The position numbers and the translations under genes are program-made. Shown here piece after piece: positions 40 to 13,671 of a stretch of DNA of 14,415 nt. How positions within the stretch are numbered: position 1 is the stretch's first letter; the number at the start of each line of letters is the position of its first letter. Below the pieces are notes generated by a model. That model was not told where the DNA came from and made no database searches. It worked only from the letters and a program-made list of their open reading frames with translations. Location of the stretch: IMG/VR virus record IMGVR_UViG_2711768057_000001; one strand, written 5' to 3'. This stretch comes from a virus. Lineage: Duplodnaviria; Heunggongvirae; Uroviricota; Caudoviricetes.

Positions 40-402
40 GGGGCTGATTCTGGATTCGACGGGATTTGCGAAACCCAAGGTGCATGCCGAGGGGCGGTTG
101 GCCTCGTAAAAAGCCGCAAAAAATAGTCGCAAACGACGAAAACTACGCTTTAGCAGCTTAATAACCTGCTTAGAGCCCTCTCTCCCTAGCCTCCGCTCTT
201 AGGACGGGGATCAAGAGAGGTCAAACCCAAAAGAGATCGCGTGGAAGCCCTGCCTGGGGTTGAAGCGTTAAAACTTAATCAGGCTAGTTTGTTAGTGGCG
301 TGTCCGTCCGCAGCTGGCAAGCGAATGTAAAGACTGACTAAGCATGTAGTACCGAGGATGTAGGAATTTCGGACGCGGGTTCAACTCCCGCCAGCTCCAC
401 CA
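40..402 (+). ncRNA. ssrA: tmRNA (transfer-messenger RNA, SsrA), 363 nt
   Basis: Begins GGGGCTGATTCTGGATTCGAC and ends GGTTCAACTCCCGCCAGCTCCACCA (tRNA-Ala-like acceptor/T-arm with CCA). Contains the internal tag reading frame at 129-161. Matches my recollection of E. coli ssrA. Confidence 0.96.
129..161 (+). other. tmRNA tag-peptide reading frame encoding ANDENYALAA followed by a stop
   Basis: GCA AAC GAC GAA AAC TAC GCT TTA GCA GCT TAA read directly from the sequence; this is the canonical SsrA degradation tag. Confidence 0.9.
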
Positions 403-1813: not shown

Positions 1814-3712
1814 TTACTGCATATCGAGGAAGAATCTTGATGCAGGATGATATTTATAATCCCCCCAAGGCATCATTCTTTTTTCTGGATAAGTAACAAA
1901 AATCCAACGCCGAGATCGTGTTATAGCTACGAAAGCATTATTTCTTTCTTCATCTAGCTCGACTTTGCTCTTAGCTCGATAATCTGGAAAAACCCCCTCA
2001 CACATACCGATAAGGAAAACTATATCTTTTTCAAGTCCTTTCATTGTATGAACAGTACTTAACATAATCCCATTATTTAAGGTATCATCATTAAGCTGAC
2101 CCAAAGCAAGTGCATTCCTAAATGAGGATAGATTATCACCGAGGCCTTTACGTTTGAATCGTGTCCACATGGATTGAAGCTGCTCTATATCTTTAATCCC
2201 TGTGGCAATATCATCTTCTTTAGCAGAATCTTTGGTATTTGCTCCTAAATTCACCAGTTCTGATTTAATATCTAAACAGAACTTCAAAATATTAGGTGTG
2301 TCTACAGACATATGATCAATATGTGCTAAAACCAAGCTAATTAAATCTTTATCTAGGTTAGATGATTTTTTTATGTCAGCATAGACTTTGCTAATATCGT
2401 AGGTAACATCTGATTCTGGATTTAATTCTAAACCGATTAATTTATACAATCTCTTCCCATCAACCCAATCCTTTGGATTAACCTTAACCCTTATAGCAAG
2501 ATCGACTATTTTCCCAATAAGAGAAACAGGCGATTCATTTCTATCACTACGCTTTAGGAAATAAGGTATATTTCTTTTTTTAAGCTCACTTTCCATAGCT
2601 TTAAAAACAAATCTATTTCTACCTATAACAACAATTTTAGAGCAATCAATATCGCCCTCAATTTCTGGATGTCTTTTTAAATTCAGTATATGTTGAATGC
2701 TATCACAAACCCATATAGCTTCAGATTCTTCATCTGGTAAAGCATTAAAAGATTTATAGCCATCAAGAGCAGCATTAACACCAACTTGGCTATTTGGTTT
2801 TAATTTATTAGCTAATTCAATCACTGCTTTCGAAGATCTATAGTTCTCGTTTAAACAATAAATTTTAGGAGTAAAATCTTTCACGAATGATTTAATAAAA
2901 TAATCTGATGATGAACCATTAAAACCATAGATCATCTGGTCACTATCACCAACCATCATGACATCTTTTATTTTATCACCGCAGAGAACCTTTATAAATT
3001 CGTACTGAGCTCTGTTTAAGTCTTGAGCTTCATCAACAAATAAAGCAACGTATTTTTTTTGATATATTCTTGCTACTGAATCTTGATTTAATAGGATTTT
3101 ATGTGCATATAAAAGTATATCATCAAAATCCACACCACCACTTTCCAATAAAGCAGACTGATAATCTTGATAAATATTCCAAATACGCGGATTGGAACTG
3201 AATTTTATCTTTACTTCATCTTCAGTTAAAAGCTCTCTTTTAATAATAGAGAATACATTAAGATATTGACTTATAATTTTTTCACGATTGCGCTTTTCTC
3301 TAACGTCCTCAACATCTAAGTATTCATCAATATTAACCCCCTGTTCTCTTAAGGAATGTAGAAAAACCTCCATCCGATCTTGGTCACGTTCAAATATATG
3401 TAATTCTTTTGGTAACCCAATAGTATACCCATAACTTTCGAGTACCCTTTGTGCAACAGAATGAATCGTAGCAATCCAAATCCTATCACGATTTTCTGAG
3501 CCATCATCTAACCTTTCAAGCATTTCATCTGCTGCTTTATTTGTGAATGTTAAAGCAACCACACTTCCTCTAGCAGAGTTATTGAGAATGAACCTAACCC
3601 TCTCAGTAAGCACTCTTGTTTTACCAGACCCTGCAGATGCAAGAACTTGTATAGCCCCTCCCATAGGAGCTTTAACAACTTCAATTTGAGATTGTGATAA
3701 ATTATCAATCAT
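1814..3712 (-). CDS. gajB: UvrD/PcrA/Rep-like superfamily 1 helicase (632 aa), Gabija GajB-like
   Basis: SF1 helicase motifs read from the translation: I AGSGKT, Ia TFTNKAADEM, II VDEAQD, III VGDSDQMIYGF, IV NYRSS, V TVHTMKGLEKDIVF, VI VAITRSRR. Start ATG overlaps the upstream OLD-like stop (ATGA at 3709-3712). Confidence 0.8.
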   Translation of the reverse strand: MIDNLSQSQIEVVKAPMGGAIQVLASAGSGKTRVLTERVRFILNNSARGSVVALTFTNKAADEMLERLDDGSENRDRIWIATIHSVAQRVLESYGYTIGLPKELHIFERDQDRMEVFLHSLREQGVNIDEYLDVEDVREKRNREKIISQYLNVFSIIKRELLTEDEVKIKFSSNPRIWNIYQDYQSALLESGGVDFDDILLYAHKILLNQDSVARIYQKKYVALFVDEAQDLNRAQYEFIKVLCGDKIKDVMMVGDSDQMIYGFNGSSSDYFIKSFVKDFTPKIYCLNENYRSSKAVIELANKLKPNSQVGVNAALDGYKSFNALPDEESEAIWVCDSIQHILNLKRHPEIEGDIDCSKIVVIGRNRFVFKAMESELKKRNIPYFLKRSDRNESPVSLIGKIVDLAIRVKVNPKDWVDGKRLYKLIGLELNPESDVTYDISKVYADIKKSSNLDKDLISLVLAHIDHMSVDTPNILKFCLDIKSELVNLGANTKDSAKEDDIATGIKDIEQLQSMWTRFKRKGLGDNLSSFRNALALGQLNDDTLNNGIMLSTVHTMKGLEKDIVFLIGMCEGVFPDYRAKSKVELDEERNNAFVAITRSRRWIFVTYPEKRMMPWGDYKYHPASRFFLDMQ

Positions 3713-5484
3713 AGCTCAAGCCATCCCCTAACTTTATTAAATGCAATAATAACAGATTCCGGAAGTAATTCCTCAATTCTCTTTCCATTTGCATTCTGTG
3801 CTAGAATCACCCCTAAATACCCTGCATAACTAGCTTTTGAGTCACGCATTTTTTCAATTATAGCACTATCTTGTAAAGCCTCTATTTCTCTTTTCTTGGC
3901 ATCTCGATACCGTTCATTAGGACTAGCTTTGGTTTCACTTAACACTAATGATTCAATTATTTCCTCACGAATATTCAACTCGTTGTATAACTCAGCTTCA
4001 ATATCATTTGTTTCTTTGAGGAACTCTAAGGAGAAACAATCAGGATTCAATACGAGGCCATCTTCACGAACTAAACGTGCTACCTGACGGTTTATCTCAC
4101 CATGAGTATCACCATCATTATCACTAATAATACAGACAGGGATACCTAAATTACTTGCAAGTTTAATGAATGGTGGGTAATTTTTACCACTGACACTTAC
4201 ACAGTTAACTCCAACACTGAACATCGTCCTACCGAAATACAATTCAAACATGGATGGTATTAATTGTTCTTCTGTAACACCCTCACATAAAATTAAGGCT
4301 CGAGAGAAAAGCAACTCACCACGGGTTAACATTATCTCCCTTTTTAATGCATTTTTTTCATCATGTTCAATTCTTTTCTTCAGACAATTTACTGTTACTC
4401 CATCACCTTTCTTTATGAATGATCTTATATCTTCTATCTCAGCCATTGCGCTCAGGTATGGTGAATGAGTACTCAGTATAATTTGTCCCTGAGATGATGA
4501 TAACTGTTTAAACAAGGTTCTTTGTGCATTGGGATGTAGATGCGCTTCTGGCTCTTCAGCTCCAACAATTGGATGTAGCGCCTTATTTTCGAGCTCATGC
4601 CGCTCATGCATAAAGCTTAAAAACGATTGAACTGTAAGCATTGAAGCCCAACTTCTCGTCCCCGTGCCATGATATTCCATTGAAAATGAATGGTTTTCTT
4701 CATCTCCGAAATGTACTGTAAATTGCTTTGATAGATCTCGGATTTTTTTAGGGAAAGGAGTTATTTCTGTGTGGCTTGATCCTAGAAATGATTGGTTTAA
4801 CCCTTGAAGTGAATTTTTTAAGCTTTGAAGCGGCTCACTTCTACTCACTGCGGTTTCATTTATTGAACTTATCATTTCTTCAAGTGCAGTAACATCTTCA
4901 TCTTCATATTTAATATATGATAAGACCTTCCCTATATATGAGCTTTTATCTTTAAGCTCATGATGTATATCCCTCTGAGCCTCAATACAAATATAGGGGA
5001 TTGCATCAACTTTTGTTCTTACCTTTCTTCTCTCGTTGACAACAATGTCTTTCCATCCCTCAAACTCCCCCCATTCATTCAAATAATAACGTTGTGTATT
5101 AAACCCACCTTTTATCTCATCTGGCTGAACTTTTGTACGAATAGCCACAAACTCATGTCCATTTGCATCTACTGCAATATTATCACCGAAAACATCAATC
5201 CATTTTTCGTCAAACTCTTCTGTTTTATTACAATGTTCATCCGTAGGTATTATTTTTAAGTCAACGATAACTTCATTAACTTTTAATCCAGAACTATCTA
5301 TATGAAGATCTTCATCACTAAAGTAACGTTGGTAATCACCTAAAGCTAGTTGCAACGATTTTAGGAAAGATGTTTTCCCCGCATTGTTTGTACCTAACAA
5401 AACGGCAATACGTCCTAGCTCAACCTCAATTTCCTTTATACCTCTAAAACCTGAAATCCTAACAGAATTTATAAGAATTGACAT
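3709..5484 (-). CDS. gajA: OLD-family ATP-dependent nuclease (N-terminal ABC-type ATPase plus C-terminal TOPRIM; 591 aa), Gabija GajA-like
   Basis: Walker A GTNNAGKTS, Walker B-like IVGAEEPEAHLHP, H-loop STHSP, and TOPRIM motifs LILCEGVTEEQ and ISDNDGD. AGGAGG Shine-Dalgarno upstream. Paired in an operon with a UvrD-like helicase, the class 2 OLD/Gabija arrangement. Confidence 0.8.
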   Translation of the reverse strand: MSILINSVRISGFRGIKEIEVELGRIAVLLGTNNAGKTSFLKSLQLALGDYQRYFSDEDLHIDSSGLKVNEVIVDLKIIPTDEHCNKTEEFDEKWIDVFGDNIAVDANGHEFVAIRTKVQPDEIKGGFNTQRYYLNEWGEFEGWKDIVVNERRKVRTKVDAIPYICIEAQRDIHHELKDKSSYIGKVLSYIKYEDEDVTALEEMISSINETAVSRSEPLQSLKNSLQGLNQSFLGSSHTEITPFPKKIRDLSKQFTVHFGDEENHSFSMEYHGTGTRSWASMLTVQSFLSFMHERHELENKALHPIVGAEEPEAHLHPNAQRTLFKQLSSSQGQIILSTHSPYLSAMAEIEDIRSFIKKGDGVTVNCLKKRIEHDEKNALKREIMLTRGELLFSRALILCEGVTEEQLIPSMFELYFGRTMFSVGVNCVSVSGKNYPPFIKLASNLGIPVCIISDNDGDTHGEINRQVARLVREDGLVLNPDCFSLEFLKETNDIEAELYNELNIREEIIESLVLSETKASPNERYRDAKKREIEALQDSAIIEKMRDSKASYAGYLGVILAQNANGKRIEELLPESVIIAFNKVRGWLEL

Positions 5485-7763: not shown

Positions 7764-7892
7764 ATAGCGAAAAGTCAATGTTTGTTTCCATGAAAATCTC
7801 ACATGACCTGAGGAAAAATATAGACATAATAAGGAGCTACCCGAAGCCGGGCGGACACGACCGGCACAGTATGGACTTTATGAGGTAGCCCG

Positions 7893-8159
7893 ATGCACAC
7901 TGCTTTTTCTTCCCCGTCTTCTGCCCCTGCCGCGCCACTGATACCGGTCTCTGATGCCGTTCAGGAGCGATTTATCCGCCTGCCTGAAGTGATGCATCTG
8001 TGCGGCCTGTCACGGTCAACCATTTACGACCTCATCAGCCGGGAAGCCTTCCCGAAACAAATCTCCCTCGGTGGAAAAAACGTGGCGTGGGCGCACTCAG
8101 AAATCATGGCATGGATGACTGACCGCATTGCCGAACGTAACCGGGGTTATGACGCATGA
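7893..8159 (+). CDS. vis: AlpA/Vis-family helix-turn-helix regulator (88 aa)
   Basis: [48 protein letters not shown] matches the AlpA-family pattern (RLPEV...G.S..TIY......FP......V.W...EI..W). Position divergent from sid corresponds to P4 vis (orf88). Confidence 0.7.
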
Positions 8160-8194
8160 TGGTGACCATTCAGCAAACAGCCCCTTTTTCTGGC

Positions 8195-8224
8195 TTGCTT
8201 CCCTTCGCCGTTTCCAGGTATAGT
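8195..8224 (+). promoter_or_regulatory. Candidate sigma70 promoter (TTGCTT, 18 nt spacer, TATAGT), P4 PLE-like early promoter
   Basis: Hexamers at 8195-8200 and 8219-8224, immediately upstream of the seqA-like element. Confidence 0.35.
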
Positions 8225-8253
8225 TTTATCGCTGTCGCAAAATCGGCAGCCGG

Positions 8254-8279
8254 GCGTAGGAACCCGTGTAATTCACAGG
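8254..8279 (+). promoter_or_regulatory. seqA-like element (GCGTAGGAAC ... ATTCACAGG), upstream target of the immunity RNA
   Basis: Direct repeat of the element at 8461-8501 and complementary to 8416-8436. Confidence 0.5.
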
Positions 8280-8286
8280 CGACAAC

Positions 8287-8309
8287 AGACGCGCCATGCG
8301 TCTTTTTTT
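8287..8309 (+). terminator. Intrinsic terminator hairpin with a T7 tract inside the early leader
   Basis: AGACGC, loop GCCAT, GCGTCT, then TTTTTTT (8303-8309). Confidence 0.55.
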
Positions 8310-8384
8310 ACGTCGTTGCTCAGGCACACCCATTTTTCGGGCTGTGGTGCTTATCCCATAGCCCCTGTCAGATAATGGTGGTCC

Positions 8385-8440
8385 GGGCGGGGCAGCCTTC
8401 GGGCTGGCCGGTATTCTGTGAAGCCGGTATTCCTACCCCC
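8385..8440 (+). ncRNA. Candidate P4 CI-like immunity RNA core (seqB plus a UUCG-tetraloop hairpin); boundaries approximate
   Basis: Hairpin CAGCC-TTCG-GGCTG at 8393-8406. The 8416-8436 segment (CTGTGAAGCCGGTATTCCTAC) is the reverse complement, in bipartite form, of GTAGGAA and TTCACAG in the seqA and seqC repeats. Confidence 0.4.
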
Positions 8441-8460
8441 GTTCGGGTCACCACCCATGA

Positions 8461-8501
8461 GCGTAGGAACTCCGGTGGTGGCAATAACCGCTATTCACAG
8501 G
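8461..8501 (+). promoter_or_regulatory. seqC-like element overlapping the ribosome-binding site of the first early ORF
   Basis: GCGTAGGAAC at 8461-8470 and ATTCACAGG at 8493-8501; the Shine-Dalgarno AGGAGG at 8499-8504 overlaps it. Confidence 0.5.
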
Positions 8502-8512
8502 AGGTTGCCCTT

Positions 8513-8707
8513 ATGGCTACGACCCTCACCCCGTCACACCCGCAGTTTGTTTTTGTGTTTGCCGCCGTTCGTCGCGCCGACCGTAAACTCCGCATCTGTA
8601 TGCTTCGTACCGTTGCCGGTGATGAACACGCCGCACGTCTTTCCCTCGTTCGCGATTACGTCCTCTCGTTTGCTGGCCGTCTGCCGGTTGCGGAGGTGCG
8701 CGCATGA
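8513..8707 (+). CDS. Small early-operon protein (64 aa), hypothetical; positionally kil-like
   Basis: Internal ATG at 8513 with AGGAGG Shine-Dalgarno 9 nt upstream. The upstream 119 codons of the ORF-track call (8156..8707) cover the structured RNA region and are not credible coding. Stop overlaps the next start (ATGA). Confidence 0.55.
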
Positions 8708-8931
8708 GACACTCCACCATTACCGCCCGAGACCTCGAATGTCTGGAGCATATGCGCAACGTCGGCCAGCTCGTCGGCGACCTGATGCAGGTGCAGGACT
8801 GCGCGACCGTTAGGCGTGACCCTGCGCAGCAGTTACAGCTCACCTCCGTGATTTACCTCATGACCGCCCAGCTAGACAGCGTGGTCGAGCGCTGCAATCA
8901 GCACTGGCTGACCGGGGAGGGTAATGTATGA
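8704..8931 (+). CDS. Small early-operon protein (75 aa), hypothetical
   Basis: GGAGGT Shine-Dalgarno 6 nt upstream; ATGA overlaps at both ends indicate translational coupling. Confidence 0.5.
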
Positions 8932-9322: not shown

Positions 9323-9348
9323 TCCGCCAGCTCCACCAATCATGATTG
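9323..9348. repeat. attR: imperfect direct repeat of the ssrA 3' end, right junction of the island
   Basis: CTCCGCCAGCTCCACCAATCATGATT versus attL CTCCCGCCAGCTCCACCAAATCATGATC; the two copies differ by two single-base indels and one terminal substitution. Confidence 0.7.
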
Positions 9349-13290: not shown

Positions 13291-13671
13291 GATAATGTCC
13301 TGAGCAGTTTTTTCAGTCCGGACCTCCTGCCACGGTTTTACGTTGAAGAGGTAACCCTGAGCACGCAGTTCATCAGTCAGGCGTGGTGTACCGTAACCCT
13401 ATTATTGATGGGTAAGATCAAAAAAACTTTCAGGCAGCTAAGGAAAGTTGAACCAGACATTAGAATAAATATTTCAACCAATTACAGCACCAATTCAGAC
13501 ACCGCCAGCTCAACAAATAAATCAAGGGGTTACGTGAAAGCGTAGCCCCTTTTTCTTTGGTAGTGGCAGCAAAATGGTTGTAGTGTAAAAAATAATCCCG
13601 TTTAATCAATCAATAATACATATTGTTTCAATCTACGTTATTATCTCTTTGTAAAAATAGCCATTTATTAA

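Follow-up and report, generated by a model that had tools for sequence, protein, structure and literature searches.

Homology and covariation evidence for a P4-type antisense RNA immunity region in a satellite prophage at ssrA

Results

The immunity region and its RNA elements

We analyzed a 14,415-nucleotide (nt) stretch of viral DNA of the Caudoviricetes (IMG/VR record IMGVR_UViG_2711768057_000001), referred to below in its full length as the window, and focused on the segment between an 88-amino acid (aa) regulatory gene and a 64-aa early gene, in which an initial annotation made from the sequence letters had proposed an RNA immunity system in the style of satellite phage P4. The features of this segment and of its surroundings are collected in Table 1. 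An Rfam scan of the window yielded three matches above the curated thresholds, namely tmRNA, C4 antisense RNA, and isrK, and the families RF01695 and RF01394 also match P4 itself at aligned positions. When positions 7880-8720 of the window are compared with P4 (X51522 8180-9041), the nucleotide identity is 73.3% over 97% of the query (approximately 820 nt). The elements occur in the same order and with the same spacing as in P4 (PLE - seqA - t1 - cI/seqB - seqC - kil/eta - timm), and the -10 box, the terminator, the CI core, box b (TTCACAG / CTGTGAA), and the context of the Shine-Dalgarno (SD) sequence and ATG are identical between the two. It has been reported that the Rfam isrK and C4 families detect P4 seqA and CI RNA, with IsrK being equated with P4 seqA (PMC3632133), and the correspondence of these two families to P4 CI RNA and seqA is likewise described in PMC10111431. 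In P4, an untranslated primary transcript is the source of CI RNA, which is released by processing and pairs with two targets, seqA on its upstream side and seqC on its downstream side, leading to premature termination (PMC4825925). As judged from sequence, then, the region is directly homologous to its P4 counterpart, which makes it more than a P4-like arrangement and not an independent look-alike.

Table 1. Positions of the RNA elements, genes, and neighboring features in the window
Feature	Position	Strand	Details
Putative PLE-like constitutive promoter	8195-8224	+	TTGCTT 8195-8200, 18-nt spacer, TATAGT 8219-8224
Leader / seqA RNA (isrK, RF01394)	8231-8308	+	74.6 bits (gathering 50), E = 9e-15, full-length model
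seqA target	8254-8279	+	box a GTAGGAA 8256-8262; box b TTCACAGG 8272-8279; exact repeat of seqC
Intrinsic terminator	8287-8309	+	7-bp stem AGACGCG-CCA-CGCGTCT and TTTTTTT tail (terminator scan)
Conserved hairpin between terminator and CI RNA	8339-8365	+	RNAalifold helix, columns 123-131/175-183
CI RNA gene (C4 antisense RNA, RF01695)	8371-8458	+	81.3 bits (gathering 45), E = 5e-15, model 1-87 of 87
seqB	8415-8436	+	recognition boxes TCTGTGAA (8415-8422) and TTCCTAC (8430-8436)
Alternative helix	8447-8455 with 8474-8482	+	GTCACCACC with GGTGGTGGC; A2 columns 268-276 / 298-306
seqC target	8461-8501	+	box a GTAGGAA 8463-8469; 24-nt spacer; box b TTCACAGG 8494-8501
SD sequence AGGAGG of kil-like gene	8499-8504	+	read from sequence
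kil/icd-like first early gene, 64 aa	8513-8707	+	ATG at 8513; NCBIfam phage_ICD_like NF033153, 7e-22
eta-like 183-codon open reading frame	8156-8707	+	in frame with kil; starts at ATGA overlap with vis; crosses both RNA genes
tmRNA	40-402		Rfam match above threshold
Gabija pair GajB and GajA	1814-5484	-	GajB 632 aa, PADLOC 2.8e-272; GajA 591 aa, 1.4e-245
vis/alpA-type regulator and excisionase gene, 88 aa	7893-8159	+	Pfam Phage_AlpA 1.5e-20

For comparative work, we fetched 65 related loci from the Enterobacterales, taking one genome per species; the resulting alignment, A2, comprises 62 immunity regions, P4 and the window included. The putative promoter at the head of the region is placed such that transcription would start at approximately 8231. 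Its -10 hexamer aligns with the '-10 consensus' marked in P4 record X02534 and has the same sequence, and the isrK model begins at 8231, in agreement with the inferred start. A generic sigma-70 scan did not call this promoter, the -35 element of which matches at only 3/6 positions. The leader is laid out as a hairpin (8231-8250), a second hairpin (8251-8266) that carries box a in its loop, a single-stranded box b, and then the terminator, the stem of which is conserved with compensatory changes across the 62 loci. We take this terminator to be the equivalent of P4 t1 (from Briani et al. 2000). The conserved hairpin that follows (GGGCUGUGG ... CCAUAGCCC) shows many compensatory changes across loci. 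The spacer holding it is approximately 45 nt longer in the P4 subgroup, and the t1-CI spacer of the window is 45 nt shorter than that of P4.

The predicted CI RNA has a 17-bp stem (8376-8392 with 8437-8453) that encloses hairpin 1 of the Rfam C4 model (GCAGCC-UUCG-GGCUG(G), 8393-8406) and a second hairpin, the loop of which carries box b' (8415-8422). Box a' lies in the junction (8430-8436), and the RNA ends in the 3' tail ACCC. Its minimum free energy is -46 kcal/mol. Across 61 distinct sequences the CI stems are 100% paired, and in the alignment the tRNA-like stem is followed by a 3' R-C-C-(A/C) tail. The initial annotation had noted both the T7-tailed terminator after the first repeat and the UUCG hairpin ahead of the complementary segment, and both are found (at 8287-8309 in the terminator scan and at 8393-8406, respectively). 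It had also placed a small RNA at 8330-8450; the models do support a structured RNA here, with the span shifted to approximately 8371-8458.

Repeats and complementarity

Two direct repeats had been described at 8254-8279 and 8461-8501, along with a segment between them, 8416-8436, that is complementary to both repeat halves. Both observations hold. The first half of the repeat, GCGTAGGAAC, is identical at 10/10 positions between 8254-8263 and 8461-8470, and the second half, ATTCACAGG, is identical at 9/9 positions between 8271-8279 and 8493-8501. Within the intervening segment, CTGTGAA (8416-8422) is the reverse complement of TTCACAG in either repeat, and TTCCTAC (8430-8436) that of GTAGGAA. 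Each repeat half is short (9-10 nt), which is what could be said in favor of chance repeats that have no function. The bipartite pattern GCGTAGGAAC-N(7-30)-ATTCACAGG, however, occurs twice in the 14.4 kb window against 0.00 occurrences expected (200 shuffles), and this count, together with the three-way covariation in 62 loci described below, refutes an origin by chance, which we consider vanishingly improbable. The heptamer GTAGGAA is itself found 6 times in the window on either strand, compared with 1.2 expected, and 3 of these occurrences are seqA, seqB, and seqC. Another copy lies on the sense strand at 360-366, near the 3' end of the tmRNA gene; at merely 7 nt in length, this one is probably a chance match.

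The predicted duplex between the seqB region and seqA has an energy of -29.7 kcal/mol, and none of 500 shuffles of the target is as low. Likewise, the seqB region and seqC give -28.2 kcal/mol, a value reached by 4 of 500 target shuffles.

Covariation of the three elements

In alignment A2 the scaffold is nearly invariant, and the two boxes vary jointly in seqA, seqB, and seqC. For the seqA:seqB interaction, 99.7% of the cells form a standard pair and 12 of the 15 pairs have changed on both sides; for seqB:seqC, 95.1% of the cells form a standard pair, again with both-sided changes in 12/15 pairs. The shortfall in the latter interaction is due to a one-column alignment shift in 9 sequences. The covariation score is 0.85 for seqA:seqB, as opposed to 0.07-0.15 with the partner displaced by 1-3 columns, and 0.76 for seqB:seqC, as opposed to 0.08-0.17. 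In neither interaction does any of 500 shuffles reach the observed score. RNAalifold, given the alignment alone, recovers the seqA:seqB helices as the consensus structure. Together with the P4 homology, the Rfam matches, and the gene context, this three-way covariation bears out the initial proposal of a P4-style seqA/seqB/seqC arrangement with a CI-like RNA.

The window and P4 differ in box a, which is GTAGGAA in the window and GTGAGAA in P4. This two-base change is coordinated across seqA, seqB, and seqC, with the box a cores reading TAGG/CCTA/TAGG in the window and TGAG/CTCA/TGAG in P4. With box a mismatched between P4 and the window, the predicted cross-pairing falls from -9.3 to -2.4 kcal/mol, and box b is shared. 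The coordinated difference in box a implies that the immunity specificity of the window may be partly different from that of P4.

The downstream target, the kil-like gene, and the overlapping open reading frame

The first 3 nt of the SD sequence of the kil-like gene are also part of box b of seqC. Such an overlap with AGGAGG had been noted in the initial annotation and is real, although it had been put forward as a departure from P4, and P4 has the identical arrangement, with the same ATTCACAGGAGG(N8)ATG before its 65-codon kil; the first gene of the window has 64 codons. As a separate candidate, we considered sequestration of the SD by a local CTCC/GGAG helix. This was unsupported as a conserved feature, the variation being one-sided (G.U) only.

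The Rho-dependent terminator timm of P4 has been located at X51522 8365-8209 (PMC3177188). By alignment, it coincides exactly with the initial 157 nt of the kil-like open reading frame (ORF), 8513-8669, a segment that is 36% C and 22% G. By analogy with P4 timm, this segment would be expected to be Rho dependent. Given that timm maps onto the 5' end of the ORF, the coupling of a translation block to termination is the known mechanism.

The eta-like frame runs open over the leader and CI in 52 of the 62 loci, and in those 52 loci the distance from the leader to the kil ATG varies only by multiples of 3 nt. A frame that is kept open in this manner is consistent with eta-type read-through translation as in P4. 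RefSeq annotates a single 183-aa 'Icd-like protein' over the region and neither of the RNAs, and Pfam Phage_ASH (PF10554) matches aa 22-131 of the 183-codon ORF, which is essentially a translation of the isrK and C4 region. The openness of the frame in 52/62 loci, along with the Pfam Phage_ASH and PHROG 'transcriptional repressor' labels that the ORF attracts, could be taken to mean that the ORF (historically, P4 'cI/ash') encodes a protein repressor for which the repeats serve as DNA operators. We find this very improbable. Operators would not need to covary with a reverse-complementary third element in a structured RNA, as the repeats do, the factor has been identified as an RNA in published P4 work (PMC4825925), and the ORF itself is better explained by eta-type read-through translation.

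An alternative helix and the two recognition boxes

In a further possible helix, the 3' strand of the CI stem, RCC tail included, pairs with the spacer of seqC, leaving box a of seqC in the loop. This alternative helix is paired in 99.3% of cells (61 distinct sequences), and at 3 of its pairs both partners have changed with Watson-Crick pairing preserved, in 12-16 sequences. The CI stem accommodates these changes by G.U wobble only, and the alternative helix compensates for them by Watson-Crick pairing. The helix is also present in phage phiKO2. It could serve as a switch controlling RNase P processing of CI, or it could form the atypical terminator 't4' of P4.

Across the 62 loci we counted 8 box-a alleles, 16 box-b alleles, 31 combinations of the two, and 24 four-gamete quartets. 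The boxes may thus re-assort independently as a two-box combinatorial code, even though each swap must hit seqA, seqB, and seqC. That the alternative helix and this combinatorial specificity code are both aspects that have not been described before is a rather doubtful suggestion, which we offer tentatively. In the 8 genomes that carry two or three loci, co-resident loci all differ in at least one box, a difference that is not significant, being expected by chance with 31 combinations in 62 loci.

One locus, from Mangrovibacter yixingensis (L042:35-330), has a seqA (GTAGGAA / CTCAATGG) of a type unlike that of its own seqB (TTTCCAC / CGTTAG) and seqC (GTGGAAA / TCTAACGG). This locus resembles a recombinant, or a stage partway through a switch of specificity.

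The host element

The window is a stretch of Escherichia coli chromosome, and we identified its proteins using profile libraries. Downstream of ssrA, the gene order is integrase, GajB/GajA, psu, delta, sid, vis/alpA, immunity region, Icd-like gene, 75-aa ORF, and DUF5375. The Gabija pair fills the int-psu interval, a known P4 defense hotspot. The vis/alpA gene is a homologue of P4 ORF88 and lies at the same aligned position upstream of the immunity region; in P4 and in the window alike, sid-delta-psu lie beyond vis. On the other side, the 75-aa ORF downstream of the kil-like gene belongs to phrog_10110 and replaces epsilon/orf151 of P4, and the DUF5375 gene is a homologue of P4 orf106. In profile scans of the window ORFs, we detected no Ant/KilA/Bro domain and no antirepressor gene (ant, anrP) after the first ORF.

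The element is bounded by 16-bp exact att repeats at 388-403 and 9324-9339 (attR). Homology to P4 ends at approximately 9277, about 15 nt into alpha, which, with attR at 9324, yields a satellite of approximately 8.9 kb that lost its primase. Of the core gene set of P4-like satellites, int, psu, delta, sid, and vis are present and the alpha primase-helicase is absent. By its sequence, the element is a defective member of the P4-like satellites.

With alpha deleted, along with whatever lay between alpha and attR, and with the orf151/epsilon region of P4 replaced, the RNA elements might be regarded as decaying leftovers in a non-functional relic. We consider this unlikely. All of the pairing boxes are perfect, neither Rfam score falls below its P4 counterpart, and the -10 box of the promoter, the terminator, the SD sequence, and the kil ORF are intact. 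Furthermore, the 841-bp region is 100% identical in 4 Escherichia coli genomes, including that of strain KSC9. It was matched in 1368 of 5426 complete E. coli genomes, with a match covering at least 80% in 737 of the 5426.

The 3' end of ssrA, CCGCCAGCTCCACCAA (388-403), has an imperfect copy at 13502-13517 in addition to the exact one at attR. The sequence past attR resembles the att/tmRNA-pseudogene regions of other ssrA-integrating phages, and remnants of the ypjA autotransporter come next. This region beyond attR looks like a tandem array of degraded elements.

Discussion

The locus is, with high probability, the immunity region of a P4-like satellite prophage integrated at ssrA. What we observed in the present analysis is homology to P4, membership of both RNAs in curated families, pairing that is accompanied by covariation, and a matching gene context. 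The processing and stability of CI RNA, and its effects on termination and translation, would follow from published work on P4, P1, and Gifsy-1.

On this model, a constitutive PLE-type promoter (approximately 8195-8224) would start transcription near 8231, and the leader would carry seqA followed by the intrinsic terminator at 8287-8309. A read-through transcript would contain a tRNA-like RNA (approximately 8376-8456) that is presumably cut out as the stable CI RNA. CI RNA would then pair with seqA through its hairpin loop (8415-8422) and its junction (8430-8436), raising termination in the leader, such that CI would regulate its own synthesis. The same CI segments would also pair with seqC (8463-8469 and 8494-8501), forming a duplex that covers the start of the SD sequence of the kil/icd-like ORF. 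With the kil-like ORF left untranslated, Rho would be expected to terminate transcription in its C-rich 5' part (8513-8669), the equivalent of P4 timm. In this way the early operon would be silenced both in the lysogen and in any superinfecting satellite that shares its specificity. This control is not expected to reach transcripts from the upstream vis promoter, on which translation would run without a break through vis and the eta-like ORF (8156-8707) after it. In P4, RNase P releases CI RNA, and processing by RNase P and PNPase yields the stable RNA. The inferred parts of the mechanism build partly on the work of Forti 1999, Briani 2000, and Biere 1992.

Several points weigh against this interpretation. 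Processing, stability, and the regulatory outcome are carried over to this locus by analogy. When the full CI RNA was cofolded with the seqC region using RNAcofold, as the initial annotation had suggested for its candidate RNA and targets, both molecules adopted their monomer folds and no intermolecular pairs were formed, a null result that is weak evidence given that loop-loop contacts lie outside that method's model; we relied instead on the duplex energies of the seqB region with seqA (-29.7 kcal/mol) and seqC (-28.2 kcal/mol), judged against shuffles, and on covariation. In addition, alpha is gone, and the operon to be controlled is a stump consisting of kil, the 75-aa ORF, and DUF5375. 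Because the operon has been reduced to this extent, the biological role of the region may be limited to immunity against incoming satellites.

The Gifsy-1 IsrK-orf45-anrP locus offers a different precedent. There, as in the window, a full-length isrK leader ends at an intrinsic terminator, and the read-through transcript continues into a processed RNA (by analogy, in the case of the window) and then a small first ORF. The short IsrK of Gifsy-1 acts in trans on its own read-through mRNA, activating translation of orf45-anrP (PMC4825925). By the same logic, the short leader of the window, which matches the Rfam isrK model over its full length, could act as a decoy in trans, capturing seqB by pairing with it on free CI RNA or on the long transcript before processing, thereby freeing seqC and the ribosome-binding site and activating translation of the kil-like gene; the locus would then be mainly an induction switch. 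Since seqA and seqC are the same in sequence, seqA necessarily competes with seqC for seqB, and when the seqC region folds on itself, part of the SD sequence is base-paired, both of which fit such control. Gifsy-1, however, has been shown to activate the antirepressor AnrP by translational coupling, whereas the window carries no anrP homologue, and no antirepressor gene (anrP/ant) follows its first ORF. In P4, moreover, genetics define the role of CI/seqA as repression with autoregulated termination (PMC4825925, PMC3632133). Sequence alone does not separate decoy from target action. We regard IsrK-type control as possible but somewhat improbable, and such activation may coexist with repression by CI RNA, the reading that we prefer.

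Repression by CI RNA also has parallels in other prophages. The immI region of P1/P7 (c4, with its a'/b' loops; targets a1b1 and a2b2; icd; ant) contains an RNA of the same family (Rfam C4, clan CL00128). In P1/P7, c4 RNA classically acts on icd in this way, through a target at the SD region. Context for c4 RNA and icd is given in PMC8198154. P1/P7 immI and the anti-immunity locus of N15/phiKO2 share with the window the two-box recognition of two targets, one upstream and the other downstream, the latter lying at the ribosome-binding site of an Icd-like gene. In P1/P7 and in N15/phiKO2, an antirepressor (ant/antA-B) follows icd, whereas profile scans found none in the window. In Klebsiella phage phiKO2 (L069:1502-1760), matches to isrK, c4-a1b1, and C4 precede icd-antA-antB. 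The c4-a1b1 family (RF03163) has no match at the gathering threshold in the window, as opposed to 49.1 bits in phiKO2. The two host elements are also dissimilar, that of the window being a satellite and that of phiKO2 an N15-like linear plasmid prophage. The box a allele of phiKO2 is nonetheless that of the window (GTAGGAA / TTCCTAC), and its box b differs. With this box a allele being common to both, RNA cross-talk between a satellite and an unrelated prophage is conceivable.

The system as such is already known and is represented in curated Rfam families, and the present copy is an ordinary one, one of many. By itself, the finding matters little, since P4-like prophages are numerous in E. 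coli and what this one carries is the textbook antisense RNA immunity of satellite P4. It is nevertheless of some practical use. CI RNA goes unmentioned in the recent large surveys of P4-like satellites that our literature search found. In protein annotation, the Pfam family Phage_ASH is largely a translation of the isrK/C4 RNA genes. The covariation data assembled here could seed a classification of satellites by immunity type. If the combinatorial two-box code is real, the box alleles that satellites share with N15-like phages would allow cross-talk between satellites and unrelated prophages.

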